The notes: generated from the letters alone by a model not told the origin. A stretch of 64,000 nt of DNA from Cyanophora paradoxa CCMP329 (GCA_004431415.1 QPMI01000068.1:124001-188000), one strand, 5' to 3'; numbered from the stretch's first letter, positions 16,359 to 35,911 are shown. Program-made: numbers and translations.

Positions 16359-16709
16359 TCAGTATTTGGGGGGACGTCCACGCTTTGCACTATGGATACC
16401 TTCCAATTCTTTGCGACGGTAATAGTTCTCCAAAGCTTGCTTTTTTTTGAATTCGCGGTATTCGGGGTCTTCCTCATACCTCTTTCGCATTTTCAGCACT
16501 TCACGGATCCGATAATTTAACCCATCCGCACTCTTAGGATTAAGTTTAACCTTTGGTGGTGAGTTAACAATTTCATCGCTGTCACTTTCAAATTCGAATT
16601 CAATAACGCTAACATCATCGGCGATAGCAGCCATTCTTACTTTCAGCACAGAAAATATTTTATCAGTTTGTAATATCGCTGTTTCTTTAAATACTTTTAG
16701 GGTTGTCAT
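16359..16709 (-). CDS. Small basic protein with C-terminal AT-hook, probable DNA-binding protein
   Basis: Ends KRGRPPKY; also KRYEEDPEYREFKKKQALENYYRRK. Start may be at 16709 or 16634. Confidence 0.6.
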   Translation of the reverse strand: MTTLKVFKETAILQTDKIFSVLKVRMAAIADDVSVIEFEFESDSDEIVNSPPKVKLNPKSADGLNYRIREVLKMRKRYEEDPEYREFKKKQALENYYRRKELEGIHSAKRGRPPKY

Positions 16710-16836
16710 TTTTTGGCGACCGGACAAGCTCTTGTCTACGTTTTTCTATCGCAGATGCAACGGCGTAAATCTGACGTTTCGCTAAAATAATATTATAGAC
16801 TTCTTCGAGCATTTTCCGATACTTATTACAAATATT

Positions 16837-17085
16837 TTAATTACCGCGATGTTCAAACGCTTGTCTTCGTAAATCATCACTTTGATCGACAGAAAACCGG
16901 CGACCATTTGTAGCGGGTTCTGAATGTGTGGAATCTACCGAATGTCTCCGGGACTCTCTACCTTCCGTTACATTATCTTCGGTATCTGAAAAACCAAGTT
17001 CTACGGTTGTATCACAGCATCCGCTGTGACAATTGCTTACAATGTGCAGGTTAAACATCTCTATGATCTTTTGGAGAAAGTCCAT
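16837..17085 (-). CDS. 82-aa hypothetical protein, copy 1 (copy 2 at 21829-22076 with a 1-bp deletion; copy 3 at 29316-29564)
   Basis: MDFLQKIIEMFNLHIVSNCHSGCC...; identical ORF in copies 1 and 3. Confidence 0.6.
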   Translation of the reverse strand: MDFLQKIIEMFNLHIVSNCHSGCCDTTVELGFSDTEDNVTEGRESRRHSVDSTHSEPATNGRRFSVDQSDDLRRQAFEHRGN

Positions 17086-17112
17086 CGAGAATCCTTTATT
17101 AATCAGATATAT

Positions 17113-17843
17113 TTAAAGCCAAACTCTCCGCTTGTATACTGTTGGTGCTACGGCTTTCTCTACTTCCGCTTTGGTAGCGCCAGGCTCTATGGTTCCCTTC
17201 TTTTGGTATTCATTTCATCCACCGCTTGCTCATCTATTTGTGTCTCTTTCTTCCGAATAAATTGAGTATCAGGAAGTCCCGTAATACCCATTCGGAAAAC
17301 CTCTTTACGTAACATCTCCTTCATTTTAGCGCGTTCTTTCTTCTCCATTACATACTGTTCCAGCGCACTCGACTTAGCTTCGAGATCACGTAGTTTAGCG
17401 GTCATTGTGTCCCATTCAGCCTTTGGCATTCGGTGGACGTTTTGAGTCGGAGCGACTTTATAAGTTACTTCTCCCGCCATCGATTGTATAACCTTGTCTG
17501 ATTCTTTCGAAACACCTTGACCTTTGCAGGCAAGTGCAAGATCTTGTAGACCAAGACCGCGATCATCGGCGGCACCGATAATACGACGCGCACCCTCACC
17601 GACCGCCTTCATCTTCGATGCATCCGGTGATACATTGAGTGTTTCACTTGTCGATGCTTGCGGTGCTTTGTCCGCCGGCGATTCTTCATAAGCAGCATTT
17701 AAAGGATCTTCTTCGGGTTGCGATGGTTTCACTTGATTAACTCCGTCAAATTTCATAGGTGTAGTATTAAGTGATCCGTAACTTTCACCACCGGAATATG
17801 AAATAGCCCCAGCGGGGACACCTACTTTACGTTTTGGCGGCAT
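17113..17843 (-). CDS. 243-aa hypothetical protein, copy 1 (1-bp homopolymer deletion near the 3' end)
   Basis: Matches the intact copy at 29592-30323. Confidence 0.7.
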
Positions 17844-17871
17844 TGTATCTTTAACTATATGGAAGATATTT

Positions 17872-18653
17872 TTAAAGTCCTCTCTTATATCGCATCAATT
17901 TATTCGAATGAACAGCGCTTTTAATCTCTTTTGGCGCTTCCTCCTTCTCGGGCGGTTTTAATTCGTCTTCTTTCTTTTTAGGTTTGCGATGGAACCGTGG
18001 GAATCCAAAGTTTTTAACGAGATCCGCTTTATCTACATAATACTTTACCGAATAATCAGCGGATGACCAAATGAGAAACTGATATGAATGAACGTATTCC
18101 TCAAACATCTTATAAAAAGCGTCTTTATCACGCATTATATTGTATTCTTCCTCAATTGCTTCAAGTTCTTTTCGATTAGCGGCGCTAAGAAACATTGCAT
18201 AATCCGAATTAACGCGAATAGTGGAAGAAACCTTACGCAGTTTCTGAGTTATGCAGATGCAGGACACCATACTATGGCGTCCACGCGAATATACAGAGCC
18301 AATTATTTTATCACGGGTTAGGTCTACTAACTCATTATCTATCAAATCATCCAGGATAATACACAATTGGTTAACGGGTTCCCCTTTCTCTATTTTCTCT
18401 TGTCTTTCATCGAGAAGTTTAGCGATGTAAGGCGCATCCCATTTACCGAGCTGTAATGTAGCGACATTATCCCAGAAATGATTAAAGCTAGTTCCACTTA
18501 TAACTAAACTACATCTAACTTTTTAGCATCGTGTAACTGTTTTAACCAATACTTTACCGCTTCCGACTTACCAGTAGCCGATTTTCCGATTGCAAGGACG
18601 CGAAAAGGTGGTTTTATCATTTCAGCGGCATTAAACTCTTCTAAATCCGCCAT
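17872..18653 (-). CDS. A32-like DNA packaging ATPase, copy 1 (1-bp homopolymer deletion at ~18507)
   Basis: Matches intact copies 2 and 3. Confidence 0.85.
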
Positions 18654-18735
18654 GGTGTTGTAGATCTTCTTAATAAAGATAGATAAAAATAACGAAATAT
18701 GACTAAATAATGGTAACAAACACATACACTGTTTA

Positions 18736-20131
18736 TTAGAGATTGACTCGCCTTAATCCGTCGCGGTCCGCTATGAGCATCGTGTGCATGAGAGCGCGCA
18801 CGTTAACAGTAAGGCGCATGTTTTGTGGACGTAGAGGGTTAGGAAACTTGATGAGGAGTTAGTTAGATCGACATAACCACTTTGGGCGATGTTACGAATC
18901 GCCTTCTCTCCGTCCAGACAGAAAGGCAGACCGGACAGGACATAGCGGTTAGCTTCCTTGTCCATGTTAGAACACTTGAATGCATCGGCGATGAGTTCCG
19001 CACCTTTGAGGAGTGGGATAGGCTCCGTGGAATAAAGACGCTGTCCGTTAATCTCCACCGTGTATGTGATATCCTTCGAGTCCGCATATGTTTTAAGGAC
19101 ACTGTGGGAGCCGCTGTTATCCTGACCAGTTTTAAGGTAATCACGAACCGAGAATAGAAGAGCGAAAGCAAGCCCCGACATTTGGCTAATGTTAATACGG
19201 TTAGGTTGGTTATTGCCGTTGGCGGCAACATCGAAAGCATCGACGTAGCCGATGTCGATAGCCGGAATCGCAATACCAGTAGTCTTAACCTTTTCAATGA
19301 CCGTAGCAAACAGCTCATCGGAAACATTGACGGCATGCATGTAAAGGCGTGGGTTGGTGATCATAATAGTATCCACAGGTGCAGATGATGGAATGGACAG
19401 ACCGGTAATGGTTCCAGTTGTGATGTTTTGACCAACATTGGCAAGAGTTACACCGGTGGCGCTTCCGAGACCATCATTAGCGGTTTGATCGGCAGCAGCT
19501 CCGACAACCGGAAGAGCGCGACCACCATAAGAAGTCTCAATGAATCCACCCTTAGCGGGGTCACGGAACCATGCGGTAACTACCATTTCCCCTGAGAGCG
19601 CGCCAAGGGGTAGATAGCTATTTAACCACGGCACCGGGATTTCCACAAAGAATGATCCACCAAGTCGGTTAGTTCCGTGTTGTGGGATGCCGTGTAGGAA
19701 GCCAGCCGAACGTTTCTTTTTCGCTAGCTGATCCTCCGAATAGTAAACCAGAGGGAAGTGAGCGAGGAAATCAGAAGGCACAGTGAAAAGGTAAGAGCCA
19801 TACGAGATTTCGAGACGCTCTACGAGAGCGCCGACGGGGCGGACATAACCATTACGAACCAAATCGGTATCACCGATGAAACCCGCAATTTCGCTAAGAT
19901 CAAAAGCGAGTTCCAGCTTACCGATAAAGTTGTAACGTGGGAGTTTGAAACTTACTCGTTGCGCAGCGTTGTTAGGGAAGGTTGTCGATGGGCTAACAGT
20001 AACGAGAACGGGTTTAGTCTTCGATTCCAGACCAAGCATAAGCGAGTTATCGAGGAAGAACGCCTTCGCCTCTTCGGGGTGGTTAGCGCCTCTTTGAGGG
20101 AAAGACGTTGGAGGGTTGTTGTGACGTCCAT
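18736..20131 (-). CDS. Major capsid protein, copy 1 (two 1-bp homopolymer deletions)
   Basis: Matches the intact 465-aa copy at 31217-32614. Confidence 0.8.
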
Positions 20132-20182
20132 GTTTTCTCTTTTACAATAATAAAATATAAAAATTCTGTGAATGATCCTTAA

Positions 20183-21193
20183 TTATCCAAAATTGCAAAT
20201 CACCGGATAATTTGGGTGAGTTTCTCTCATTCTCATTTTGAAATACTCATAAATAGGATCACCGGCGGGTTCTTCACCATATCGGATCTCGAAAGTTAAA
20301 TGGACAGGTTGCCCCTCGAAATCAATTAATTCGTTTTGAGCATTCACAATTTCTACGGACATTTGAGAGATTGCGAATGGTTTCCCGTAATACTTGTATA
20401 ACGGGTTTGCTTCTGTTGAATTATAAACAACGTGTTCCGCAAAGTCTTTATCTTGCACCACGAGTTTATGGAAGTATCCAGATAGGAGACCATCGGCACA
20501 TTGAACGAGGTCACCCAGTTCTTTTACTCTTACGAATAATACATTATCTTTGCAACTCTCAGTAGGGAATGTCGAGATGATACCATGAACATTAGCACCT
20601 GTAAAGATAGGATCATATTCAGTTGAGTAAATGTTAGATTTGATAAATCGGTTACCGGCTCTTCCGGCATCGAGACCAAGCATACGACCGTGTCGGTTTG
20701 ATTTTTCAGCCATCGAACTAGAAGGATCCTTAGCAGTTGTGAATGCTATGTAAAATTCATGAGGAGCATAGAATATTACGTGTTTCTCTACGGTATCCCA
20801 TTTACACCTTATTTGAGGATCAGGTGTTAAACCAGCAAACCGAGTATTAATACGGTTTACTAATTCCTGATGCGTATTAATTACTAAGCTTCCGCTACTT
20901 TGACCGGGACGAATTGAGCGCCAAACATCAAAACCGGGAGCGGGAGCATTGGTAGAGTTGATCGCTGAATTAGCGATACTAAAATTAATAGTGAAAGAAT
21001 CAGTAACTGTGACATCTCCGGGGACACTTTCATCGCTGATAAGAGGAATGGAGTTATAGAATTCCGCCGAAACAAGTCGGACAGCTCTTACATTCTCATA
21101 CATCTTTGGTAATTCAGCGATAAACTTAGACGTCGGCGCATCGAGATTAGGAGCCTGTCTAAATGATGAAACTTCGACATATTCGACCGGCAT
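20183..21193 (-). CDS. Minor capsid (penton) protein 1, copy 1
   Basis: VEVSSFR...SKFIAELPKMYENVRAVRLVSAEFYNS and VEIVNAQNELIDFEGQPVHLTFEI, a single-jelly-roll penton signature. Confidence 0.8.
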   Translation of the reverse strand: MPVEYVEVSSFRQAPNLDAPTSKFIAELPKMYENVRAVRLVSAEFYNSIPLISDESVPGDVTVTDSFTINFSIANSAINSTNAPAPGFDVWRSIRPGQSSGSLVINTHQELVNRINTRFAGLTPDPQIRCKWDTVEKHVIFYAPHEFYIAFTTAKDPSSSMAEKSNRHGRMLGLDAGRAGNRFIKSNIYSTEYDPIFTGANVHGIISTFPTESCKDNVLFVRVKELGDLVQCADGLLSGYFHKLVVQDKDFAEHVVYNSTEANPLYKYYGKPFAISQMSVEIVNAQNELIDFEGQPVHLTFEIRYGEEPAGDPIYEYFKMRMRETHPNYPVICNFG

Positions 21194-21222
21194 GTTTCTT
21201 TAATCTATATTCATATAATAAA

Positions 21223-21689
21223 ATGATTCGTCTTATCAATGTCGATAGTAGAGATCGACAACAAGGACAAAAAGAAAACTCTTATAGGGTTGCACTCACA
21301 AGACCAATAACCAAACCACGGCAATGTCGCGTTTTGTATGCTGAGATTCCGAACAGTATATATAATTCAATAGGAACCGATTATATAACGATTCGTTATA
21401 ATATCGATGGTGTTTATATAAATCAGCAACTGTTTCCATTACCGAGTGGTTACATAAATCAAGGACACTTTGGCGTGACACAACCATATAATTATGGTTT
21501 GAACTTTGCGGTTACTGAGAATATATTATTTAAGATCTACTACAATCCGACGACATACAAATTAGAGTTTTATAGTAATTTCGCTTTTGAACTCATCGCC
21601 GGAAATAATAGGATAGCTAAGTTATTGGGTCTCAGTGCAACAACATTATTAGGTAGCGCAGGACAGATAATAGATAATAATAGGTCTTT
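21223..21689 (+). pseudogene. Penton 2, 5' half, truncated at junction J1
   Basis: Identical to 26215 onward up to ...IIDNNRS, then jumps to the sequence of 16694; the chimeric frame ends at 21864. Confidence 0.85.
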
Positions 21690-22103
21690 TAGGGTTGTCA
21701 TTTTTTGGCGACCGGACAAGCTCTTGTCTACGTTTTTCTATCGCAGATGCAACGGCGTAAATCTGACGTTTCGCTTAAATAATATTATAGACTTCTTCGA
21801 GCATTTTCCGATACTTATTACAAATATTTTAATTACCGCGATGTTCAAACGCTTGTCTTCGTAAATCATCACTTTGATCGACAGAAAACCGGCGACCATT
21901 TGTAGCGGGTTCTGAATGTGTGGAATCTACCGAATGTCTCCGGACTCTCTACCTTCCGTTACATTATCTTCGGTATCTGAAAAACCAAGTTCTACGGTTG
22001 TATCACAGCATCCGCTGTGACAATTGCTTACAATGTGCAGGTTAAACATCTCTATGATCTTTTGGAGAAAGTCCATCGAGAATCCTTTATTAATCAGATA
22101 TAT

Positions 22104-22834
22104 TTAAAGCCAAACTCTCCGCTTGTATACTGTTGGTGCTACGGCTTTCTCTACTTCCGCTTTGGTAGCGCCAGGCTCTATGGTTCCCTTCTTTTTGGTA
22201 TTCATTTCATCCACCGCTTGCTCATCTATTTGTGTCTCTTTCTTCCGAATAAATTGAGTATCAGGAAGTCCCGTAATACCCATTCGGAAAACCTCTTTAC
22301 GTAACATCTCCTTCATTTTAGCGCGTTCTTTCTTCTCCATTACATACTGTTCCAGCGCACTCGACTTAGCTTCGAGATCACGTAGTTTAGCGGTCATTGT
22401 GTCCCATTCAGCCTTTGGCATTCGGTGGACGTTTTGAGTCGGAGCGACTTTATAAGTTACTTCTCCCGCCATCGATTGTATAACCTTGTCTGATTCTTTC
22501 GAAACACCTTGACCTTTGCAGGCAAGTGCAAGATCTTGTAGACCAAGACCGCGATCATCGGCGGCACCGATAATACGACGCGCACCCTCACCGACCGCCT
22601 TCATCTTCGATGCATCCGGTGATACATTGAGTGTTTCACTTGTCGATGCTTGCGGTGCTTTGTCCGCCGGCGATTCTTCATAAGCAGCATTTAAAGGATC
22701 TTCTTCGGGTTGCGATGGTTTCACTTGATTAACTCCGTCAAATTTCATAGGTGTAGTATTAAGTGATCCGTAACTTTCACCACCGGAATATGAAATAGCC
22801 CCAGCGGGACACCTACTTTACGTTTTGGCGGCAT
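22104..22834 (-). CDS. 243-aa hypothetical protein, copy 2 (1-bp deletion near the 5' end)
   Basis: Matches 29592-30323. Confidence 0.7.
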
Positions 22835-22862
22835 TGTATCTTTAACTATATGGAAGATATTT

Positions 22863-23645
22863 TTAAAGTCCTCTCTTATATCGCATCAATTTATTCGAAT
22901 GAACAGCGCTTTTAATCTCTTTTGGCGCTTCCTCCTTCTCGGGCGGTTTTAATTCGTCTTCTTTCTTTTTAGGTTTGCGATGGAACCGTGGGAATCCAAA
23001 GTTTTTAACGAGATCCGCTTTATCTACATAATACTTTACCGAATAATCAGCGGATGACCAAATGAGAAACTGATATGAATGAACGTATTCCTCAAACATC
23101 TTATAAAAAGCGTCTTTATCACGCATTATATTGTATTCTTCCTCAATTGCTTCAAGTTCTTTTCGATTAGCGGCGCTAAGAAACATTGCATAATCCGAAT
23201 TAACGCGAATAGTGGAAGAAACCTTACGCAGTTTCTGAGTTATGCAGATGCAGGACACCATACTATGGCGTCCACGCGAATATACAGAGCCAATTATTTT
23301 ATCACGGGTTAGGTCTACTAACTCATTATCTATCAAATCATCCAGGATAATACACAATTGGTTAACGGGTTCCCCTTTCTCTATTTTCTCTTGTCTTTCA
23401 TCGAGAAGTTTAGCGATGTAAGGCGCATCCCATTTACCGAGCTGTAATGTAGCGACATTATCCCAGAAATGATTAAAGCTAGTTCCACTTATAACTAAAA
23501 CTACATCTAACCTTTTAGCATCGTGTAACTGTTTTAACCAATACTTTACCGCTTCCGACTTACCAGTAGCCGATTTTCCGATTGCAAGGACGCGAAAAGG
23601 TGGTTTTATCATTTCAGCGGCATTAAACTCTTCTAAATCCGCCAT
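22863..23645 (-). CDS. A32-like DNA packaging ATPase, copy 2
   Basis: Walker A IGKSATGKS, Walker B IILDD, RGRH arginine finger and ITQ motif. Likely start MADLEEF. Confidence 0.92.
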   Translation of the reverse strand: MADLEEFNAAEMIKPPFRVLAIGKSATGKSEAVKYWLKQLHDAKRLDVVLVISGTSFNHFWDNVATLQLGKWDAPYIAKLLDERQEKIEKGEPVNQLCIILDDLIDNELVDLTRDKIIGSVYSRGRHSMVSCICITQKLRKVSSTIRVNSDYAMFLSAANRKELEAIEEEYNIMRDKDAFYKMFEEYVHSYQFLIWSSADYSVKYYVDKADLVKNFGFPRFHRKPKKKEDELKPPEKEEAPKEIKSAVHSNKLMRYKRGL

Positions 23646-23727
23646 GGTGTTGTAGATCTTCTTAATAAAGATAGATAAAAATAACGAAATATGACTAAAT
23701 AATGGTAACAAACACATACACTGTTTA

Positions 23728-25123
23728 TTAGAGATTGACTCGCCTTAATCCGTCGCGGTCCGCTATGAGCATCGTGTGCATGAGAGCGCGCACGTTAACA
23801 GTAAGGCGCATGTTTTGTGGGACGTAGAGGGTTAGGAAACTTGATGAGGAGTTAGTTAGATCGACATAACCACTTTGGGCGATGTTACGAATCGCCTTCT
23901 CTCCGTCCAGACAGAAAGGCAGACCGGACAGGACATAGCGGTTAGCTTCCTTGTCCATGTTAGAACACTTGAATGCATCGGCGATGAGTTCCGCACCTTT
24001 GAGGAGTGGGATAGGCTCCGTGGAATAAAGACGCTGTCCGTTAATCTCCACCGTGTATGTGATATCCTTCGAGTCCGCATATGTTTTAAGGACACTGTGG
24101 GAGCCGCTGTTATCCTGACCAGTTTTAAGGTAATCACGAACCGAGAATAGAAGAGCGAAAGCAAGCCCCGACATTTGGCTAATGTTAATACGGTTAGGTT
24201 GGTTATTGCCGTTGGCGGCAACATCGAAAGCATCGACGTAGCCGATGTCGATAGCCGGAATCGCAATACCAGTAGTCTTAACCTTTTCAATGACCGTAGC
24301 AAACAGCTCATCGGAAACATTGACGGCATGCATGTAAAGGCGTGGGTTGGTGATCATAATAGTATCCACAGGTGCAGATGATGGAATGGACAGACCGGTA
24401 ATGGTTCCAGTTGTGATGTTTTGACCAACATTGGCAAGAGTTACACCGGTGGCGCTTCCGAGACCATCATTAGCGGTTTGATCGGCAGCAGCTCCGACAA
24501 CCGGAAGAGCGCGACCACCATAAGAAGTCTCAATGAATCCACCCTTAGCGGGGTCACGGAACCATGCGGTAACTACCATTTCCCCTGAGAGCGCGCCAAG
24601 GGGTAGATAGCTATTTAACCACGGCACCGGGATTTCCACAAAGAATGATCCACCAAGTCGGTTAGTTCCGTGTTGTGGGATGCCGTGTAGGAAGCCAGCC
24701 GAACGTTTCTTTTTCGCTAGCTGATCCTCCGAATAGTAAACCAGAGGGAAGTGAGCGAGGAAATCAGAAGGCACAGTGAAAAGGTAAGAGCCATACGAGA
24801 TTTCGAGACGCTCTACGAGAGCGCCGACGGGCGGACATAACCATTACGAACCAAATCGGTATCACCGATGAAACCCGCAATTTCGCTAAGATCAAAAGCG
24901 AGTTCCAGCTTACCGATAAAGTTGTAACGTGGGAGTTTGAAACTTACTCGTTGCGCAGCGTTGTTAGGGAAGGTTGTCGATGGGCTAACAGTAACGAGAA
25001 CGGGTTTAGTCTTCGATTCCAGACCAAGCATAAGCGAGTTATCGAGGAAGAACGCCTTCGCCTCTTCGGGGTGGTTAGCGCCTCTTTGAGGGAAAGACGT
25101 TGGAGGGTTGTTGTGACGTCCAT
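23728..25123 (-). CDS. Major capsid protein, copy 2 (two 1-bp homopolymer deletions)
   Basis: Matches 31217-32614. Confidence 0.8.
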
Positions 25124-25174
25124 GTTTTCTCTTTTACAATAATAAAATATAAAAATTCTGTGAATGATCCTTAA

Positions 25175-26214: not shown

Positions 26215-27126
26215 ATGATTCGTCTTATCAATGTCGATAGTAGAGATCGACAACAAGGACAAAAAGAAAACTCTTATAGGGTTGCACTCACAAGACCAAT
26301 AACCAAACCACGGCAATGTCGCGTTTTGTATGCTGAGATTCCGAACAGTATATATAATTCAATAGGAACCGATTATATAACGATTCGTTATAATATCGAT
26401 GGTGTTTATATAAATCAGCAACTGTTTCCATTACCGAGTGGTTACATAAATCAAGGACACTTTGGCGTGACACAACCATATAATTATGGTTTGAACTTTG
26501 CGGTTACTGAGAATATATTATTTAAGATCTACTACAATCCGACGACATACAAATTAGAGTTTTATAGTAATTTCGCTTTTGAACTCATCGCCGGAAATAA
26601 TAGGATAGCTAAGTTATTGGGTCTCAGTGCAACAACATTATTAGGTAGCGCAGGACAGATAATAGATAATAATAGGTCTTTATATGCTCCCGAAAATATC
26701 TTATTTTACGCGGGGACTCCGATAACACCAGATCACCCACAGTGGGGGATAACATTCGAGGGAGCGGAGTTAGTAGCGGCACCGATGGCTTTTAAAGCGG
26801 TTAGTCCAAAGATGGCGGACATGAACGCTGAACAATACATTTATATGCACATTAAAGAAATTGCCACATTTGCTTCGAACCATCATGTAGTTCCGAAATC
26901 GCAACCACAGAACCAAGGCGCAATTTTGCGTTTACAATTAAGTCAGGACATCGGAAAGTATATATACCATAGCGGAGAGCATGGCGAATACATAAAAATA
27001 AACGATCGTAATTTGGTGATTAATGAGTTAACGGTAGAATTTCGTGATTATTACGGTGATCTTGTTGATATGAACGGAATCGATAATTCGTTTGAGTTGG
27101 AGTTTTTAGCGTTAGGTATTGATTAG
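26215..27126 (+). CDS. Minor capsid (penton) protein 2, intact (303 aa)
   Basis: INVDSRDR...YRVAL...LYAEIPNSIYN and LTVEFRDYYGDLVDMNGIDNSFELEF, classic PLV/NCLDV penton motifs. Confidence 0.88.
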   Translation: MIRLINVDSRDRQQGQKENSYRVALTRPITKPRQCRVLYAEIPNSIYNSIGTDYITIRYNIDGVYINQQLFPLPSGYINQGHFGVTQPYNYGLNFAVTENILFKIYYNPTTYKLEFYSNFAFELIAGNNRIAKLLGLSATTLLGSAGQIIDNNRSLYAPENILFYAGTPITPDHPQWGITFEGAELVAAPMAFKAVSPKMADMNAEQYIYMHIKEIATFASNHHVVPKSQPQNQGAILRLQLSQDIGKYIYHSGEHGEYIKINDRNLVINELTVEFRDYYGDLVDMNGIDNSFELEFLALGID

Positions 27127-27830
27127 TCTTCTTTGTCATCGGTGAATGGGTCATGATCACCGAATATATCCACAAGTATTATATTATTATCATTTAGATC
27201 GGCTATATACCATCCTGTTTCTTTTGTCCAAATTGCACCATGTTTATGTAGCAATTTACGGAGACTTTTACGGCTTCTGATGACTAAACCGAATTCTTCG
27301 AATTTATCATGAACACTTGAAAGATCACGTTTAGGCACGTTTAGATAAACCCGACGGTCTAACTTTTCTCTTTCCAGCCGATGTGCAATATAATCAATTT
27401 CATGCCTTACACGAACCAGAAGAAAACATAATTCGTTTTGTAGCTCGATTTCATCATTGAAAACCTCCGTTAAATCCAAGATTTTGCGATAATGTGCAAT
27501 GTTAACCCTTTCATCCTCTTCTATTTCATCATCATCCATACGACAAAACCTATTATCATAGGTATGAACATATACTTCTTTGGTATTTGACGGATAGTAA
27601 CCAATAGATGAGATATGAGTAAGTTTAAGATCATCACCGAATCCATGCCGTCCGACTTGAATAGCATGACTAACTATATGCATTTGATCAAGATGAAACT
27701 TATCTATTTTAAGAATTTCTGAAAAAGCCGGGTTTCCTTCTATTTTAATATCGAAAACACGCCCTCTTATGTCATCAGCATCTCTAATAATACGTCTCGT
27801 TCCATCAGGTGCAATTTCGACGCGAGCCAT
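27123..27830 (-). CDS. 235-aa protein with DUF5710-like C-terminus, copy a
   Basis: RVYLNVP...KHGAIWTKETGWYI resembles the DUF5710 pattern YLNVP...GARWD...WY. Confidence 0.55.
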   Translation of the reverse strand: MARVEIAPDGTRRIIRDADDIRGRVFDIKIEGNPAFSEILKIDKFHLDQMHIVSHAIQVGRHGFGDDLKLTHISSIGYYPSNTKEVYVHTYDNRFCRMDDDEIEEDERVNIAHYRKILDLTEVFNDEIELQNELCFLLVRVRHEIDYIAHRLEREKLDRRVYLNVPKRDLSSVHDKFEEFGLVIRSRKSLRKLLHKHGAIWTKETGWYIADLNDNNIILVDIFGDHDPFTDDKED

Positions 27831-28306
27831 CGTTACTTATCTCTTACACAGAAAATATTTTTCTTTCTTAACCCTCTATATCACAACTTCCTTAAATCAA
27901 TTTGTGTAGCTCACGGGGCTTTCATTTTTCGCACGATATACAGTGAGACTTTCATTTTTACTGTCGATAAAATCAGGTTACCTGAGTGTTAAACGTCAAG
28001 GTTTTCGCAAAATATGAAAAAGTTAACGATAGAACAGACAGTAAAACAGGTTGCTGTAAGTGTTTATTGATGAACAACAAAACAATTATTTGTAAATACT
28101 CAATAAACTGATTTACTGTTATATTTAAAGATCTCTTCTTGTAGCGGAGCGAAAGAAATGTAATATATCATCGTTAATAGAAGAGAGGATAATAGGTATC
28201 TTTGGTGGATCTCCACATACGGAGAGACATAAAGTATCGAGATTTCCGACACGGTAATAAGTGGTAAAAGAAGATGTAACAGGTTAATTAATTGTGATTC
28301 AGTGTA

Positions 28307-28379
28307 GTGTAACAGGTGTAACAGGTTCTCCCCAAAGTTCCAAGCCGCCGACCTCCTCCTAGGGGAAAGTTTGGGATGA
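28307..28379. promoter_or_regulatory. Iteron hairpin, truncated copy ending at junction J2
   Basis: Identical to 35797-35869, then CAT, then internal penton-1 sequence. Confidence 0.8.
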
Positions 28380-28382
28380 CAT

Positions 28383-29176
28383 TACTTTGACCGGGACGAA
28401 TTGAGCGCCAAACATCAAAACCGGGAGCGGGAGCATTGGTAGAGTTGATCGCTGAATTAGCGATACTAAAATTAATAGTGAAAGAATCAGTAACTGTGAC
28501 ATCTCCGGGGACACTTTCATCGCTGATAAGAGGAATGGAGTTATAGAATTCCGCCGAAACAAGTCGGACAGCTCTTACATTCTCATACATCTTTGGTAAT
28601 TCAGCGATAAACTTAGACGTCGGCGCATCGAGATTAGGAGCCTGTCTAAATGATGAAACTTCGACATATTCGACCGGCATGTTTCTTTAATCTATATTCA
28701 TATAATAAAATGATTCGTCTTATCAATGTCGATAGTAGAGATCGACAACAAGGACAAAAAGAAAACTCTTATAGGGTTGCACTCACAAGACCAATAACCA
28801 AACCACGGCAATGTCGCGTTTTGTATGCTGAGATTCCGAACAGTATATATAATTCAATAGGAACCGATTATATAACGATTCGTTATAATATCGATGGTGT
28901 TTATATAAATCAGCAACTGTTTCCATTACCGAGTGGTTACATAAATCAAGGACACTTTGGCGTGACACAACCATATAATTATGGTTTGAACTTTGCGGTT
29001 ACTGAGAATATATTATTTAAGATCTACTACAATCCGACGACATACAAATTAGAGTTTTATAGTAATTTCGCTTTTGAACTCATCGCCGGAAATAATAGGA
29101 TAGCTAAGTTATTGGGTCTCAGTGCAACAACATTATTAGGTAGCGCAGGACAGATAATAGATAATAATAGGTCTTT
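28383..29176. pseudogene. 5' fragments of penton 1 (28383-28680, minus) and penton 2 (28710-29176, plus) between J2 and the second J1
   Basis: Copy of 20896-21689. Confidence 0.88.
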
Positions 29177-29591
29177 TAGGGTTGTCATTTTTTGGCGACC
29201 GGACAAGCTCTTGTCTACGTTTTTCTATCGCAGATGCAACGGCGTAAATCTGACGTTTCGCTTAAATAATATTATAGACTTCTTCGAGCATTTTCCGATA
29301 CTTATTACAAATATTTTAATTACCGCGATGTTCAAACGCTTGTCTTCGTAAATCATCACTTTGATCGACAGAAAACCGGCGACCATTTGTAGCGGGTTCT
29401 GAATGTGTGGAATCTACCGAATGTCTCCGGGACTCTCTACCTTCCGTTACATTATCTTCGGTATCTGAAAAACCAAGTTCTACGGTTGTATCACAGCATC
29501 CGCTGTGACAATTGCTTACAATGTGCAGGTTAAACATCTCTATGATCTTTTGGAGAAAGTCCATCGAGAATCCTTTATTAATCAGATATAT

Positions 29592-30323
29592 TTAAAGCCA
29601 AACTCTCCGCTTGTATACTGTTGGTGCTACGGCTTTCTCTACTTCCGCTTTGGTAGCGCCAGGCTCTATGGTTCCCTTCTTTTTGGTATTCATTTCATCC
29701 ACCGCTTGCTCATCTATTTGTGTCTCTTTCTTCCGAATAAATTGAGTATCAGGAAGTCCCGTAATACCCATTCGGAAAACCTCTTTACGTAACATCTCCT
29801 TCATTTTAGCGCGTTCTTTCTTCTCCATTACATACTGTTCCAGCGCACTCGACTTAGCTTCGAGATCACGTAGTTTAGCGGTCATTGTGTCCCATTCAGC
29901 CTTTGGCATTCGGTGGACGTTTTGAGTCGGAGCGACTTTATAAGTTACTTCTCCCGCCATCGATTGTATAACCTTGTCTGATTCTTTCGAAACACCTTGA
30001 CCTTTGCAGGCAAGTGCAAGATCTTGTAGACCAAGACCGCGATCATCGGCGGCACCGATAATACGACGCGCACCCTCACCGACCGCCTTCATCTTCGATG
30101 CATCCGGTGATACATTGAGTGTTTCACTTGTCGATGCTTGCGGTGCTTTGTCCGCCGGCGATTCTTCATAAGCAGCATTTAAAGGATCTTCTTCGGGTTG
30201 CGATGGTTTCACTTGATTAACTCCGTCAAATTTCATAGGTGTAGTATTAAGTGATCCGTAACTTTCACCACCGGAATATGAAATAGCCCCAGCGGGGACA
30301 CCTACTTTACGTTTTGGCGGCAT
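29592..30323 (-). CDS. 243-aa hypothetical protein, intact copy 3 (NLS-like PPKRKV N-terminus, coiled coil)
   Basis: Open ORF downstream of the ATPase; starts MPPKRKV. Confidence 0.75.
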   Translation of the reverse strand: MPPKRKVGVPAGAISYSGGESYGSLNTTPMKFDGVNQVKPSQPEEDPLNAAYEESPADKAPQASTSETLNVSPDASKMKAVGEGARRIIGAADDRGLGLQDLALACKGQGVSKESDKVIQSMAGEVTYKVAPTQNVHRMPKAEWDTMTAKLRDLEAKSSALEQYVMEKKERAKMKEMLRKEVFRMGITGLPDTQFIRKKETQIDEQAVDEMNTKKKGTIEPGATKAEVEKAVAPTVYKRRVWL

Positions 30324-30351
30324 TGTATCTTTAACTATATGGAAGATATTT

Positions 30352-31134
30352 TTAAAGTCCTCTCTTATATCGCATCAATTTATTCGAATGAACAGCGCTT
30401 TTAATCTCTTTTGGCGCTTCCTCCTTCTCGGGCGGTTTTAATTCGTCTTCTTTCTTTTTAGGTTTGCGATGGAACCGTGGGAATCCAAAGTTTTTAACGA
30501 GATCCGCTTTATCTACATAATACTTTACCGAATAATCAGCGGATGACCAAATGAGAAACTGATATGAATGAACGTATTCCTCAAACATCTTATAAAAAGC
30601 GTCTTTATCACGCATTATATTGTATTCTTCCTCAATTGCTTCAAGTTCTTTTCGATTAGCGGCGCTAAGAAACATTGCATAATCCGAATTAACGCGAATA
30701 GTGGAAGAAACCTTACGCAGTTTCTGAGTTATGCAGATGCAGGACACCATACTATGGCGTCCACGCGAATATACAGAGCCAATTATTTTATCACGGGTTA
30801 GGTCTACTAACTCATTATCTATCAAATCATCCAGGATAATACACAATTGGTTAACGGGTTCCCCTTTCTCTATTTTCTCTTGTCTTTCATCGAGAAGTTT
30901 AGCGATGTAAGGCGCATCCCATTTACCGAGCTGTAATGTAGCGACATTATCCCAGAAATGATTAAAGCTAGTTCCACTTATAACTAAAACTACATCTAAC
31001 TTTTTAGCATCGTGTAACTGTTTTAACCAATACTTTACCGCTTCCGACTTACCAGTAGCCGATTTTCCGATTGCAAGGACGCGAAAAGGTGGTTTTATCA
31101 TTTCAGCGGCATTAAACTCTTCTAAATCCGCCAT
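30352..31134 (-). CDS. A32-like DNA packaging ATPase, copy 3
   Basis: Same motifs as copy 2. Confidence 0.92.
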   Translation of the reverse strand: MADLEEFNAAEMIKPPFRVLAIGKSATGKSEAVKYWLKQLHDAKKLDVVLVISGTSFNHFWDNVATLQLGKWDAPYIAKLLDERQEKIEKGEPVNQLCIILDDLIDNELVDLTRDKIIGSVYSRGRHSMVSCICITQKLRKVSSTIRVNSDYAMFLSAANRKELEAIEEEYNIMRDKDAFYKMFEEYVHSYQFLIWSSADYSVKYYVDKADLVKNFGFPRFHRKPKKKEDELKPPEKEEAPKEIKSAVHSNKLMRYKRGL

Positions 31135-31216
31135 GGTGTTGTAGATCTTCTTAATAAAGATAGATAAAAATAACGAAATATGACTAAATAATGGTAACAA
31201 ACACATACACTGTTTA

Positions 31217-32614
31217 TTAGAGATTGACTCGCCTTAATCCGTCGCGGTCCGCTATGAGCATCGTGTGCATGAGAGCGCGCACGTTAACAGTAAGGCGCAT
31301 GTTTTGTGGGACGTAGAGGGTTAGGAAACTTGATGAGGAGTTAGTTAGATCGACATAACCACTTTGGGCGATGTTACGAATCGCCTTCTCTCCGTCCAGA
31401 CAGAAAGGCAGACCGGACAGGACATAGCGGTTAGCTTCCTTGTCCATGTTAGAACACTTGAATGCATCGGCGATGAGTTCCGCACCTTTGAGGAGTGGGA
31501 TAGGCTCCGTGGAATAAAGACGCTGTCCGTTAATCTCCACCGTGTATGTGATATCCTTCGAGTCCGCATATGTTTTAAGGACACTGTGGGAGCCGCTGTT
31601 ATCCTGACCAGTTTTAAGGTAATCACGAACCGAGAATAGAAGAGCGAAAGCAAGCCCCGACATTTGGCTAATGTTAATACGGTTAGGTTGGTTATTGCCG
31701 TTGGCGGCAACATCGAAAGCATCGACGTAGCCGATGTCGATAGCCGGAATCGCAATACCAGTAGTCTTAACCTTTTCAATGACCGTAGCAAACAGCTCAT
31801 CGGAAACATTGACGGCATGCATGTAAAGGCGTGGGTTGGTGATCATAATAGTATCCACAGGTGCAGATGATGGAATGGACAGACCGGTAATGGTTCCAGT
31901 TGTGATGTTTTGACCAACATTGGCAAGAGTTACACCGGTGGCGCTTCCGAGACCATCATTAGCGGTTTGATCGGCAGCAGCTCCGACAACCGGAAGAGCG
32001 CGACCACCATAAGAAGTCTCAATGAATCCACCCTTAGCGGGGTCACGGAACCATGCGGTAACTACCATTTCCCCTGAGAGCGCGCCAAGGGGTAGATAGC
32101 TATTTAACCACGGCACCGGGATTTCCACAAAGAATGATCCACCAAGTCGGTTAGTTCCGTGTTGTGGGATGCCGTGTAGGAAGCCAGCCGAACGTTTCTT
32201 TTTCGCTAGCTGATCCTCCGAATAGTAAACCAGAGGGAAGTGAGCGAGGAAATCAGAAGGCACAGTGAAAAGGTAAGAGCCATACGAGATTTCGAGACGC
32301 TCTACGAGAGCGCCGACGGGGCGGACATAACCATTACGAACCAAATCGGTATCACCGATGAAACCCGCAATTTCGCTAAGATCAAAAGCGAGTTCCAGCT
32401 TACCGATAAAGTTGTAACGTGGGAGTTTGAAACTTACTCGTTGCGCAGCGTTGTTAGGGAAGGTTGTCGATGGGCTAACAGTAACGAGAACGGGTTTAGT
32501 CTTCGATTCCAGACCAAGCATAAGCGAGTTATCGAGGAAGAACGCCTTCGCCTCTTCGGGGGTGGTTAGCGCCTCTTTGAGGGAAAGACGTTGGAGGGTT
32601 GTTGTGACGTCCAT
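31217..32614 (-). CDS. Double-jelly-roll major capsid protein, intact (465 aa)
   Basis: Size and position between penton and ATPase; VSFKLPR, GALVERLEISYG, FFVEIPVPW, YLPLGALSGEMVVTAWFR and TVEINGQ motifs typical of DJR capsids. Confidence 0.87.
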   Translation of the reverse strand: MDVTTTLQRLSLKEALTTPEEAKAFFLDNSLMLGLESKTKPVLVTVSPSTTFPNNAAQRVSFKLPRYNFIGKLELAFDLSEIAGFIGDTDLVRNGYVRPVGALVERLEISYGSYLFTVPSDFLAHFPLVYYSEDQLAKKKRSAGFLHGIPQHGTNRLGGSFFVEIPVPWLNSYLPLGALSGEMVVTAWFRDPAKGGFIETSYGGRALPVVGAAADQTANDGLGSATGVTLANVGQNITTGTITGLSIPSSAPVDTIMITNPRLYMHAVNVSDELFATVIEKVKTTGIAIPAIDIGYVDAFDVAANGNNQPNRINISQMSGLAFALLFSVRDYLKTGQDNSGSHSVLKTYADSKDITYTVEINGQRLYSTEPIPLLKGAELIADAFKCSNMDKEANRYVLSGLPFCLDGEKAIRNIAQSGYVDLTNSSSSFLTLYVPQNMRLTVNVRALMHTMLIADRDGLRRVNL

Positions 32615-32665
32615 GTTTTCTCTTTTACAATAATAAAATATAAAAATTCTGTGAATGATCCTTAA

Positions 32666-33676
32666 TTATCCAAAATTGCAAATCACCGGATAATTTGGGT
32701 GAGTTTCTCTCATTCTCATTTTGAAATACTCATAAATAGGATCACCGGCGGGTTCTTCACCATATCGGATCTCGAAAGTTAAATGGACAGGTTGCCCCTC
32801 GAAATCAATTAATTCGTTTTGAGCATTCACAATTTCTACGGACATTTGAGAGATTGCGAATGGTTTCCCGTAATACTTGTATAACGGGTTTGCTTCTGTT
32901 GAATTATAAACAACGTGTTCCGCAAAGTCTTTATCTTGCACCACGAGTTTATGGAAGTATCCAGATAGGAGACCATCGGCACATTGAACGAGGTCACCCA
33001 GTTCTTTTACTCTTACGAATAATACATTATCTTTGCAACTCTCAGTAGGGAATGTCGAGATGATACCATGAACATTAGCACCTGTAAAGATAGGATCATA
33101 TTCAGTTGAGTAAATATTAGATTTGATAAATCGGTTACCGGCTCTTCCGGCATCGAGACCAAGCATACGACCGTGTCGGTTTGATTTTTCAGCCATCGAA
33201 CTAGAAGGATCCTTAGCAGTTGTGAATGCTATGTAAAATTCATGAGGAGCATAGAATATTACGTGTTTCTCTACGGTATCCCATTTACACCTTATTTGAG
33301 GATCAGGTGTTAAACCAGCAAACCGAGTATTAATACGGTTTACTAATTCCTGATGCGTATGAATTACTAAGCTTCCGCTACTTTGACCGGGACGAATTGA
33401 GCGCCAAACATCAAAACCGGGAGCGGGAGCATTGGTAGAGTTGATCGCTGAATTAGCGATACTAAAATTAATAGTGAAAGAATCAGTAACTGTGACATCT
33501 CCGGGGACACTTTCATCGCTGATAAGAGGAATGGAGTTATAGAATTCCGCCGAAACAAGTCGGACAGCTCTTACATTCTCATACATCTTTGGTAATTCAG
33601 CGATAAACTTAGACGTCGGCGCATCGAGATTAGGAGCCTGTCTAAATGATGAAACTTCGACATATTCGACCGGCAT
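32666..33676 (-). CDS. Minor capsid (penton) protein 1, copy 3
   Basis: Same protein sequence as copy 2. Confidence 0.8.
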   Translation of the reverse strand: MPVEYVEVSSFRQAPNLDAPTSKFIAELPKMYENVRAVRLVSAEFYNSIPLISDESVPGDVTVTDSFTINFSIANSAINSTNAPAPGFDVWRSIRPGQSSGSLVIHTHQELVNRINTRFAGLTPDPQIRCKWDTVEKHVIFYAPHEFYIAFTTAKDPSSSMAEKSNRHGRMLGLDAGRAGNRFIKSNIYSTEYDPIFTGANVHGIISTFPTESCKDNVLFVRVKELGDLVQCADGLLSGYFHKLVVQDKDFAEHVVYNSTEANPLYKYYGKPFAISQMSVEIVNAQNELIDFEGQPVHLTFEIRYGEEPAGDPIYEYFKMRMRETHPNYPVICNFG

Positions 33677-33705
33677 GTTTCTTTAATCTATATTCATATA
33701 ATAAA

Positions 33706-34616
33706 ATGATTCGTCTTATCAATGTCGATAGTAGAGATCGACAACAAGGACAAAAAGAAAACTCTTATAGGGTTGCACTCACAAGACCAATAACCAAACC
33801 ACGGCAATGTCGCGTTTTGTATGCTGAGATTCCGAACAGTATATATAATTCAATAGGAACCGATTATATAACGATTCGTTATAATATCGATGGTGTTTAT
33901 ATAAATCAGCAACTGTTTCCATTACCGAGTGGTTACATAAATCAAGGACACTTTGGCGTGACACAACCATATAATTATGGTTTGAACTTTGCGGTTACTG
34001 AGAATATATTATTTAAGATCTACTACAATCCGACGACATACAAATTAGAGTTTTATAGTAATTTCGCTTTTGAACTCATCGCCGGAAATAATAGGATAGC
34101 TAAGTTATTGGGTCTCAGTGCAACAACATTATTAGGTAGCGCAGGACAGATAATAGATAATAATAGGTCTTTATATGCTCCCGAAAATATCTTATTTTAC
34201 GCGGGGACTCCGATAACACCAGATCACCCACAGTGGGGGATAACATTCGAGGGAGCGGAGTTAGTAGCGGCACCGATGGCTTTTAAAGCGGTTAGTCCAA
34301 AGATGGCGGACATGAACGCTGAACAATACATTTATATGCACATTAAAGAAATTGCCACATTTGCTTCGAACCATCATGTAGTTCCGAAATCGCAACCACA
34401 GAACCAAGGCGCAATTTTGCGTTTACAATTAAGTCAGGACATCGGAAAGTATATATACCATAGCGGAGAGCATGGCGAATACATAAAATAAACGATCGTA
34501 ATTTGGTGATTAATGAGTTAACGGTAGAATTTCGTGATTATTACGGTGATCTTGTTGATATGAACGGAATCGATAATTCGTTTGAGTTGGAGTTTTTAGC
34601 GTTAGGTATTGATTAG
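33706..34616 (+). CDS. Minor capsid (penton) protein 2, second full-length copy (1-bp A-run deletion at ~34486)
   Basis: Matches 26215-27126. Confidence 0.8.
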
Positions 34617-35320
34617 TCTTCTTTGTCATCGGTGAATGGGTCATGATCACCGAATATATCCACAAGTATTATATTATTATCATTTAGATCGGCTATATAC
34701 CATCCTGTTTCTTTTGTCCAAATTGCACCATGTTTATGTAGCAATTTACGGAGACTTTTACGGCTTCTGATGACTAAACCGAATTCTTCGAATTTATCAT
34801 GAACACTTGAAAGATCACGTTTAGGCACGTTTAGATAAACCCGACGGTCTAACTTTTCTCTTTCCAGCCGATGTGCAATATAATCAATTTCATGCCTTAC
34901 ACGAACCAGAAGAAAACATAATTCGTTTTGTAGCTCGATTTCATCATTGAAAACCTCCGTTAAATCCAAGATTTTGCGATAATGTGCAATGTTAACCCTT
35001 TCATCCTCTTCTATTTCATCATCATCCATACGACAAAACCTATTATCATAGGTATGAACATATACTTCTTTGGTATTTGACGGATAGTAACCAATAGATG
35101 AGATATGAGTAAGTTTAAGATCATCACCGAATCCATGCCGTCCGACTTGAATAGCATGACTAACTATATGCATTTGATCAAGATGAAACTTATCTATTTT
35201 AAGAATTTCTGAAAAAGCCGGGTTTCCTTCTATTTTAATATCGAAAACACGCCCTCTTATGTCATCAGCATCTCTAATAATACGTCTCGTTCCATCAGGT
35301 GCAATTTCGACGCGAGCCAT
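34613..35320 (-). CDS. 235-aa DUF5710-like protein, copy b
   Basis: Same protein sequence as 27123-27830. Confidence 0.55.
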   Translation of the reverse strand: MARVEIAPDGTRRIIRDADDIRGRVFDIKIEGNPAFSEILKIDKFHLDQMHIVSHAIQVGRHGFGDDLKLTHISSIGYYPSNTKEVYVHTYDNRFCRMDDDEIEEDERVNIAHYRKILDLTEVFNDEIELQNELCFLLVRVRHEIDYIAHRLEREKLDRRVYLNVPKRDLSSVHDKFEEFGLVIRSRKSLRKLLHKHGAIWTKETGWYIADLNDNNIILVDIFGDHDPFTDDKED

Positions 35321-35796
35321 CGTTACTTATCTCTTACACAGAAAATATTTTTCTTTCTTAACCCTCTATATCACAACTTCCTTAAATCAATTTGTGTAGC
35401 TCACGGGGCTTTCATTTTTCGCACGATATACAGTGAGACTTTCATTTTTACTGTCGATAAAATCAGGTTACCTGAGTGTTAAACGTCAAGGTTTTCGCAA
35501 AATATGAAAAAGTTAACGATAGAACAGACAGTAAAACAGGTTGCTGTAAGTGTTTATTGATGAACAACAAAACAATTATTTGTAAATACTCAATAAACTG
35601 ATTTACTGTTATATTTAAAGATCTCTTCTTGTAGCGGAGCGAAAGAAATGTAATATATCATCGTTAATAGAAGAGAGGATAATAGGTATCTTTGGTGGAT
35701 CTCCACATACGGAGAGACATAAAGTATCGAGATTTCCGACACGGTAATAAGTGGTAAAAGAAGATGTAACAGGTTAATTAATTGTGATTCAGTGTA

Positions 35797-35911
35797 GTGT
35801 AACAGGTGTAACAGGTTCTCCCCAAAGTTCCAAGCCGCCGACCTCCTCCTAGGGGAAAGTTTGGGATGAACCCGTTACACCTGTTACACTAACCATTTTC
35901 AGTAAGAACCC
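35797..35911. promoter_or_regulatory. Iteron hairpin, candidate origin (copy R), inverted relative to copy L
   Basis: 35797-35889 is the exact reverse complement of 13625-13717 (93 bp); weaker similarity continues to ~35911. Confidence 0.75.

Follow-up and report, generated by a model that had tools for sequence, protein, structure and literature searches.

Nested tandem duplications across the capsid genes of an endogenous Polinton-like virus in Cyanophora paradoxa

The window analyzed here, 64,000 nt of Cyanophora paradoxa CCMP329 DNA (GCA_004431415.1, QPMI01000068.1:124001-188000), holds an embedded Polinton-like virus (PLV) that is set off by its GC content, 40.5% versus ~60–80% in most of the GC-rich, repeat-rich flanks (Table 1). 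The element is integrated and lies within the ~14–40 kb size range of PLVs, at ~27.5 kb with its duplications and, by arithmetic, ~14,980 bp without both. Its gene set comprises a double jelly-roll capsid protein, an A32 ATPase, a protein-primed PolB (pPolB), and a D5 primase-helicase. The outer borders, which are approximate, show no likeness to each other, and no target-site duplication was called from them. Scanning the element's ORFs together with 14 frames at the borders gave no match to an integrase (rve or tyrosine recombinase), with ORF235, ORF243, and ORF116 left unassigned, and neither the rve integrase nor the Ulp1 cysteine protease Pfam family matched any ORF scanned.

Table 1. Features of the element and its repeats, in window coordinates
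Feature	Position	Strand	Remarks
Endogenous Polinton-like virus	9100..36560		Borders approximate, from GC profile
Zinc-finger/HNH-endonuclease-like fragment, 90 aa	9323..9595	+	PHROG endonuclease E 2e-10; Pfam DUF4379 below cut-off
pPolB	9925..13194	-	Contigs of 4/4 runs differ from the window at 12415
Left inverted repeat	13581..13717		137 nt, 91% complementary to right repeat; itself a ~95-nt imperfect hairpin, z -6.2
Prim-Pol/D5-like primase-helicase, 779 aa	13830..16169	-	Single copy, frame whole; Pfam D5_N, DUF5906, Prim-Pol; PHROG primase E 1e-63
ORF116, 116 aa	16359..16709	-	Function unassigned; single copy; J1 acceptor at its 5' edge
Copy 1 of 4,996-bp unit	16694..21689		ORF82, ORF243, ATPase, MCP, penton 1, 5' half of penton 2
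Truncated penton 2 made by J1	21163..21864	+	First 175/323 aa, then foreign residues
J1, first occurrence	21686..21689		4-nt microhomology; penton 2 interior joined to 16694
Copy 2 of unit	21686..26681		As assembled, ORF243 and MCP frames broken, ATPase and penton 1 intact
Penton 2, likely minor capsid protein, 323 aa	26155..27126	+	Only whole copy as assembled
ORF235, first of two copies	27123..27830	-	Function unassigned
Truncated penton 1 made by J2	28288..28680	-	99/336 aa fused to hairpin-derived residues
Partial right inverted repeat, 73 nt	28307..28379		Cut within second hairpin arm; hairpin lost, z +1.5
J2, sole occurrence	28380..28382		3-nt filler; cut hairpin joined to penton 1 interior (equivalent to 20896)
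Second truncated penton 2	28650..29351	+	
J1, second occurrence	29173..29176		Identical to first
Copy 3 of unit	29173..34172		ORF243, ATPase, MCP, penton 1 all whole
A32-like genome packaging ATPase, copy 3	30352..31206	-	Pfam Pox_A32 E 4e-10, above cut-off
MCP, predicted double jelly-roll, 465 aa, copy 3	31217..32614	-	Only whole MCP as assembled
Penton 1, 336 aa, putative second minor capsid protein	32666..33676	-	Also whole at 20183-21193, 25175-26185
Penton 2, last copy	33646..34616	+	One-base homopolymer indel breaks frame as assembled
ORF235, second copy	34613..35320	-	
Right inverted repeat with ~97-nt hairpin	35797..35933		z -7.9; J2 donor break at 35869
AT-rich segment near right border	36218..36521		Closed by 31-bp near-perfect inverted repeat, z -6.7

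The element carries both replication genes expected of a PLV, pPolB and a primase-helicase. Each occurs once, in agreement with the original prediction that the replication genes had stayed single copy. The polymerase has an endonuclease insert and is closest to Polinton-type enzymes (35–45% identity). This copy of polB contains one premature stop, which could be an assembly error of the kind that the available part of PMC10120064 describes in other protist viral insertions; the gene looks conserved in the virus family, where 21 of the 23 polB differences listed are silent. With a stop in polB and no integrase match, this copy is probably not autonomous. The 137-nt inverted repeats are internal, with polB outside the pair. 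A D5 element nested into a separate polB element was considered and is not favored, given a family contig in which the polB side runs into the repeat; the link onward across the hairpin to D5 falls outside what that contig shows. An apparent flipped isomer of the hairpin occurs in one family contig, from one of four runs, and a search of viral contigs with a hairpin motif gave 0 matches.

The predicted major capsid protein (MCP) gave a low-confidence structure model (pLDDT 48.9), whose named top matches in Foldseek are nonetheless MCPs (E 1e-11). In VIA, each of its ten highest-ranked matches is a capsid or scaffold protein of the double jelly-roll type (best match: Z 12.7, rmsd 3.8, 150 aligned). 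These model comparisons point to a double jelly-roll capsid protein of the kind expected in a PLV. The sequence is very divergent: 1.84 billion representatives yielded three matches, two of them true relatives, and the third (P0003), a repetitive non-viral protein, was dropped from the MCP alignment. Queries with the MCP and the ATPase, which is of the A32/FtsK-like packaging type found in PLVs, retrieved no related loci from viral or metagenome contigs, and PDB sequence searches gave nothing useful. Penton 2 is likely a minor capsid protein, a lead drawn from its ESM Atlas features (0.97 to viral clusters) and from two Atlas clusters in which 13% of members are annotated with DUF5901 and 17% with V18-19. 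Penton 1 bears a weak C-terminal likeness to penton 2 (E 0.017), and its fold model was unusable (pLDDT 33). Neither penton had a Pfam or PHROG match of weight, and ORF235 had no usable match in Atlas, Pfam, or PHROG.

Self-BLAST and global alignments resolve the capsid region into a unit present three times (99.8–99.9% identity) and a longer stretch present twice (20896–28379 and 28383–35869, 99.92% identity). The repeat periods are 4,992 and 7,487 bp, the smaller nested in the larger. The same alignments bore out the proposal that J1 occurs twice, at 21686 and 29173, and J2 once, and that a 4,992-bp duplication sits within a ~7.49-kb duplication that includes J1. A microhomology of at least four letters, as at J1, is shared in 1.9% of random joins within the element. 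J2 has no microhomology and breaks inside the palindromic right inverted repeat; a template for its filler was looked for near the junction and not found. Together the two hairpins make up 0.95% of the element, and the probability that one end out of four would land there is ~4%. A 794-bp segment is present four times, and the switch from copy 1 to copy 2/3 alleles falls across it. None of the contig pieces listed bridges J1 or J2, so the reality of the two junctions rests on the assembly. A search of metagenome contigs for the J1 stretch gave 0 exact matches.

The capsid module had been described as amplified threefold. This stands for ORF82, ORF243, the ATPase, the MCP, and penton 1 but not for penton 2, which exists as two full-length and two truncated genes; penton 1 also has a fourth, truncated copy. 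Other parts occur twice rather than three times: ORF235, ~500 bp of non-coding sequence, and 73 nt from the right inverted repeat. The earlier account had passed over the hairpin break and 3-nt filler at J2, the doubling of an unrelated gene, the three truncated pentons, the polB stop, and the indels.

The virus belongs to a multi-copy family present in 20 public DNA runs of one organism. We compared the locus with family contigs assembled from four short-read runs; these contigs come as hundreds of pieces, with many variants in each run. Family contigs supplied depth in 30/30 bins of both compared stretches, and no gene loss relative to the family was evident. Capsid-gene bins show higher contig depth, a quantity that does not equal copy number. 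Most family differences are silent (56 of the 65 classed). At 31610 and 31622, all three copies hold letters that are absent from the contigs of 4/4 runs. The three copies therefore stem from one progenitor, and the contigs drop rare variants of the locus and cannot show absence; with that limit, J2 was not listed as a joint in contigs of 4/4 runs over 7400–21689. A 1,494-bp deletion in a different member of the family has a 3-nt filler of the J2 kind (3/4 runs), and family contigs hold three further skip-type joints of 83–212 bp, so rearranged copies are common in this virus family. One joint, 20698 to 20899 (2/4 runs), lands 3 nt from the J2 acceptor and is probably a divergent penton segment.

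Copy 1 carries the family's alleles. It differs from copies 2 and 3 by substitutions at 16784/21776/29263, 20633/25625/33116, and 20878/25870/33361, and 23512 is a change private to copy 2 that alters one ATPase residue; all four sites are exactly as first proposed. Divergence between copies amounts to 3/4,202 and 1/7,484 bases. Family contigs have the copy 1 allele at 29263 and 33116 wherever these are listed, and a contig on 20667–21224, which spans 20878, shows zero differences from copy 1. Copies 2 and 3 therefore share derived changes, which supports the proposed two-step nested order. In the step 1 interval the three substitutions all lie on one side (0 vs. 3, p = 0.25). Two of the three coding changes between copies alter an amino acid, compared with 9 of the 65 listed family differences (p = 0.066), a neutral signal that comes from three changes.

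Eight one-base homopolymer indel sites also separate the copies. Those in copy 1 break its ORF243, ATPase, and MCP as assembled; copy 3 has no indel against the contigs of the four runs over 26690–33370. All four one-base indels of copy 1, together with two in the host flank, are read the opposite way in the contigs that cover them. One site is common to copies 1 and 2 versus copy 3; being off the tree, it requires a repeated error or gene conversion. The one-base indels probably represent errors of the long-read consensus.

We favor, with somewhat better than even confidence, a history in which one integrated copy underwent two nested head-to-tail duplications through successive, unselected end-joining repair in the host chromosome. 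A first step would have copied 16694–21689 through the microhomology join at J1, and three substitutions would then have fallen in the second unit. In a second step, a break inside the palindromic right inverted repeat would have been joined, with filler, into penton 1, copying 7,487 bp and J1 with it. On this view the tripling of the capsid genes would reflect where they sit, between the D5 gene and the right hairpin, and not selection. Most likely, then, the array records DNA-repair accidents in an inactive copy and not selection for more capsid protein. The sequence is compatible with duplication either before integration or after it.

An assembly artifact, in which all or part of the array was created by chimeric reads or by a mistaken route through near-identical copies, seems rather unlikely to us; two loci might, for example, have been joined in the four-copy segment, by the assembler or by recombination. 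The abundance and variety of family copies in each run would invite such an error, the homopolymer signature occurs in virus and flank alike, false consensus on protist viral insertions has been described (PMC10120064, in the portion available), and the allele switch coincides with the four-copy segment. However, J1 is letter-identical at both occurrences, and the copies share private alleles while differing by nested substitutions as well as by indels, the latter distinct in each copy as separate read piles would give. J2 falls on a hairpin, and its filler matches that of the family deletion seen in short-read contigs. Even a mis-join of two loci would leave J1 and J2 real within one locus.

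We also consider unlikely an origin in a viral phase, in which an over-length or defective genome carrying J1 was replicated extrachromosomally and, on integration by host end joining, two such molecules were joined end to middle at the hairpin, giving J2. The hairpin repeat that donates J2 is an expected place for a genome end or origin, the flipped isomer in a single contig fits such a phase, as does the failure to find an integrase in the ORFs and border frames scanned, and faster viral mutation would account for three substitutions between the steps. Yet classical defective viral genomes lose essential genes and keep the origin and packaging ends, and no such gene loss is evident in this array against the family contigs: it is larger, not deleted (27.5 vs. 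15 kb), having gained 12.5 kb. The family contig that joins the polB side to the repeat argues that the hairpin is not simply a genome end, and the copy-to-copy changes lack the family's silent bias, a weak point. A more elaborate version, which we hold to be distinctly improbable, is that an undescribed PLV lineage, its capsid almost devoid of known relatives, replicates or rearranges via palindromic repeats within the genome, which would switch between two isomers while the polymerase module stays outside the pair; breaking and joining at the hairpin would yield junction-bearing, capsid-enriched genomes that are copied as viruses and integrated without an integrase, and the array would be their fossil. 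The locus would gain in importance if the isomers were real or if J1 proved to move among loci or inside particles; we found no description of traveling junctions or hairpin isomers for Polinton-like viruses in the literature searched.

Least probable is the accordion-like selection for dosage raised in the original prediction, in which host or virus gains from a triple dose of ATPase, MCP, and penton in poxvirus style: the ATPase, MCP, and penton 1 are indeed tripled against single polB and D5, the divergent penton start region is kept in each unit, and each of the three MCP frames would be intact were the indels errors, but when two duplications of these sizes were placed at random in coordinate simulations the same dosage pattern arose 11% of the time, and 65% of the time with the second one ending, like J2, in the hairpin, the units cut both penton genes and are not centered on a selected gene beyond chance, three truncated pentons were made, ORF235 and part of the hairpin were doubled, and two of three coding changes alter residues.

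Tandem duplication in an integrated copy has a published parallel. According to the available part of its description, the endogenous Tsv element of Tetraselmis striata, which guided Tsv-S2b, has a 5,441-bp tandem duplication missing from the genome of the matching virus (10.1101/2025.10.09.676808). Both are integrated algal PLVs with a kilobase internal tandem duplication, one in Tetraselmis and two nested in Cyanophora; the Tsv clade has a tyrosine recombinase and 0.6–1.7 kb terminal repeats, whereas the Cyanophora element has 137-nt internal repeats and no integrase that we could find. Protist endogenous PLVs, as far as the accessible text of PMC10120064 and PMC12220804 goes, resemble it in size (14–40 kb), GC contrast with the host, many copies per genome, and pairing of an MCP with pPolB or a primase-helicase, and their apparent frameshifts are often assembly errors. 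They usually have an rve or tyrosine-recombinase integrase and terminal repeats, and the Cyanophora element differs in having both pPolB and D5 with an inverted repeat between. It shares with Maverick/Polinton elements, as partly seen in PMC11071308, a pPolB with endonuclease insert and ATPase, MCP, and likely minor capsid genes; in the strict sense of that class pPolB is present, rve integrase and Ulp1 were not detected, and the Prim-Pol/D5 helicase is extra. The vaccinia K3L accordion (PMC6115191, in part) likewise shows head-to-tail copies, a repeated breakpoint, and copy-marking single-base variants, but it is a selected array of variable copy number in a replicating virus population, whereas the Cyanophora array, with two distinct breakpoints, one nested in the other, belongs to a single integrated copy whose polymerase is broken. 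Compared with the end-module turnover model for PLVs, as outlined in the available part of PMC11296320, the element has its PolB beyond the repeat pair and gave no tyrosine recombinase match; in keeping with that model, the D5-like primase-helicase adjoins the inverted repeat and PolB is also present.

Under the reading of unselected repair, the locus carries modest weight as a clean, ordered case of an integrated DNA virus scrambled in a host chromosome, and it illustrates that extra capsid genes in viral insertions are not necessarily a sign of selection. Of greater interest as a lead is the virus, with its very divergent capsid, its internal hairpin repeats, and one hint of flip isomers. 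The alleles that tell the copies apart make the expression of each copy directly testable.

Self-BLAST of the window bore out both the three near-identical units and the longer duplication of the original prediction (see the table), and global alignments confirmed periods of 4,992 and 7,487 bp. These alignments also recovered J1, the junction inside the putative minor capsid gene penton 2, with its 4-nt microhomology at both occurrences, and reproduced all four substitutions listed earlier among the copies. Some details had been missed: J2, the junction of the second duplication, contains a 3-nt filler and no microhomology, and the copies are separated by eight one-base indel sites, every one in a homopolymer run. 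J2's donor end, which also went unnoticed, sits within the hairpin of the right inverted repeat, at 13 nt inside its second arm.

Coordinates of features discussed in the text (window positions)
Feature	Position	Remark
Second AT-rich island	1-1000	39% GC, cut by window start
251-aa ORF	326-1081	in second island
High-copy host repeat	7400-8830	left flank
12-bp direct repeat	8194-8205 / 9142-9153	brackets 948 bp
Main AT-rich island	~9.1 to 36.6 kb	40.5% GC
PolB premature stop	12415-12417	
Inverted repeats, left / right	13581-13717 / 35797-35933	137 nt each
Family deletion	14949-16444	1,494 bp
12-nt AT-rich motif	16649, 27849, 35339	identical
Copies 1 / 2 / 3	16694-21689 / 21686-26681 / 29173-34172	
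Longer duplication	20896-28379 / 28383-35869	
J1	21686, 29173	
J2	28380-28382	
MCP	31217-32614	
Right-border segment	36218-36521	31-bp near-perfect inverted repeat
Recent host duplication	37099-37415 / 47221-47537	100% identical
Shorter arrays	38049-39326	128-295-bp units
Satellite	39967-46250	139-bp unit, ~45 copies, ~79% GC
Host duplicates	46663-47220 / 48183-48743	99.3% identical

The main AT-rich island is flanked by GC-rich, repeat-rich DNA, and the element measures ~15.0 kb once the duplications are subtracted. Its genes include one for a protein-primed PolB of the Polinton type, which contains an endonuclease VII insert and whose single reading frame is interrupted once by a premature stop; a Prim-Pol/D5 helicase is also encoded, as is an A32 ATPase. 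The 465-aa protein (MCP) has the predicted fold of a double jelly-roll capsid protein; its model is weak (pLDDT 48.9), and capsid proteins rank first in both fold searches. The penton labels are weaker than the capsid's: that of penton 2 comes from an Atlas lead, and that of penton 1 from where the gene lies and from a resemblance to penton 2 at E 0.017. Neither an integrase nor a protease turned up among the element's ORFs and the border frames scanned. By its capsid, ATPase, replication genes, and size, the element is a Polinton-like virus; it differs from a Maverick in the strict sense (as defined in PMC11071308), having neither rve integrase nor protease in the ORFs scanned.

The MCP represents a poorly sampled capsid lineage. 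It had no Pfam or PHROG match, one match (58% identity) among 7,997 candidates scored, and three among 1.84 billion representative proteins, one of them spurious, which leaves two true relatives. The nearest named MCP bears a EukProt identifier in a style that we take to be a glaucophyte's. PMC8502044 mentions adintovirus-like proteins from a glaucophyte. On these grounds the host, a eukaryote with GC-rich DNA, is probably an alga. The 12-nt AT-rich motif lies ahead of the ORF116 region on the minus strand and of each copy of ORF235, and is a candidate promoter element of the virus. The right-border segment, AT-rich and strongly strand-biased, is a possible true terminus.

Between 72 and 85% of the sampled words of 26690-33370 were present in 20 of the 24 public runs listed, which carry one organism label throughout, come from 15 studies (four rows name none), and consist of short-read contigs only; the best-matching run may be the window's own source. 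When aligned to the window, contigs revealed a polymorphic multi-copy family, with 276-481 and 199-932 records per run in two stretches. Silent changes made up 56 of the 65 family differences classed, namely those in polB, D5, ATPase, MCP, and penton 1 among the 80 difference rows listed (341 in all), with the polB stop and 14 rows outside the five genes omitted, neighbouring changes within one codon classed singly, and one of the 65 rows also a copy-to-copy site. Hence the family diverged as functional viruses. Rearrangement also affects other family members: in three of the four runs compared, contigs lack 1,494 bp, comprising most of ORF116 together with D5's 5′ half, and have a 3-nt filler at the joint, and further family joints skip 83, 212, and 200 bp. 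Contigs of three of the four runs also skip the 948 bp between the 12-bp direct repeats, which may be an insert at the left edge of the virus (a weak signal, the shorter side being 22 letters).

A better lead than the capsid triplication is offered by the internal palindromic hairpins and their possible isomers. Each inverted repeat is palindromic and lies within the element, with polB located beyond the pair, a layout not peculiar to the window because one family contig (depth 301) has the same join of the polB side to the repeat. In one of the four runs, a contig of depth 135 links 13645 with the opposite strand at 13707, its shorter side being 35 letters long. Its 35 letters from 13707 match the inner flank at 35 of 35 positions (left) and 30 of 35 (right) vs. 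22 of 35 for the outer flank; because they match the inner, not the outer, flank, we suspect a flipped hairpin isomer, a lead only from this one contig. The literature searched, including the accessible text of PMC12220804, PMC12721341, and PMC11296320, contains no description of hairpin isomers in Polinton-like viruses. At 13717 and 13805, other family contigs continue from the repeat into sequence that differs from the window's.

Family contigs carry copy 1's alleles at 29263, at 33116, and across 20878, and because of this match copies 2 and 3 have derived changes in common; the nested order originally proposed is thus well supported. All three copies descend from one progenitor, since the letters at 31610 and 31622 are common to them and absent from contigs of all four runs. 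Divergence is 7.1e-4 for step 1 (the duplication that made J1) and 1.3e-4 for step 2 (J2), so that both duplications are recent, on very small counts. The one-base homopolymer indels are best read as long-read consensus errors, because covering contigs have the opposite state at copy 1's four and at two in the host flank, and because the host duplicates have the same signature as the virus (one substitution and three one-base homopolymer indels in 561 bp); they may instead be real private changes. Such errors are a known residue in assemblies (PMC8812927, PMC10120064).

No contig piece among those listed bridges J1 or J2, a weak test given that these short-read contigs drop the locus's rare variants (31610, 31622). 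We consider it unlikely that the array is an assembly artefact, given that J1 is letter-identical at both occurrences, that its microhomology has a 1.9% chance and the position of J2 inside the hairpin ~4% for one of four ends, that substitutions among the copies are nested, and that the J2 filler matches that of the family deletion seen in short reads; such an artefact would be favoured by the family's high copy number, the window's long-read error signature, a switch of alleles spanning a 794-bp segment present four times, and one indel common to copies 1 and 2.

The capsid module was said to be tripled, which holds for ATPase, MCP, and penton 1 (also ORF82 and ORF243) but not for penton 2, with two full-length and two truncated copies. 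A fourth, truncated penton 1 exists, and both ORF235 and a portion of the right hairpin occur twice. In the assembly, copy 3 alone has intact MCP and ORF243 frames, ATPase is intact there and in copy 2, and a single penton 2 is intact. The proposed selection for dosage was not supported. Of 4,000 simulations placing the observed duplication lengths at random coordinates, 10.9% gave the pattern seen here, with at least three copies of MCP, ATPase, and penton 1 and one each of polB and D5; when the second duplication ended in the right hairpin and was 1-12 kb long, 65% gave three MCP genes alongside unduplicated replication genes. Two of three coding changes between copies alter a residue vs. 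9 of 65 family differences (Fisher p = 0.066), a weak sign of drift. Dosage selection is thus unneeded. Head-to-tail arrangement is the array's sole likeness to the vaccinia accordion (PMC6115191), and none of the titles, opening abstract lines, and excerpts covered by the literature search describes a nested capsid-module triplication in Polinton-like viruses.

Our best reading is that one copy, probably inactive, of a divergent family of Polinton-like viruses underwent two duplications without selection for either. The first duplication would have arisen through microhomology-mediated end joining or template switching, and a break in the palindromic repeat would have started the second, with repair leaving the short filler. 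Palindromes are known to be fragile sites (PMC7999016). The host chromosome is the somewhat favoured setting of these duplications, ahead of replicating viral DNA before integration, which seems rather improbable.

The second AT-rich island may be one end of a further viral insertion, and its 251-aa ORF has no Pfam or PHROG match. In all four runs compared, the left flank is a very high-copy host repeat, with no Pfam match in the frames scanned. The right flank contains the satellite, the shorter arrays, and both pairs of host duplicates, which are recent.
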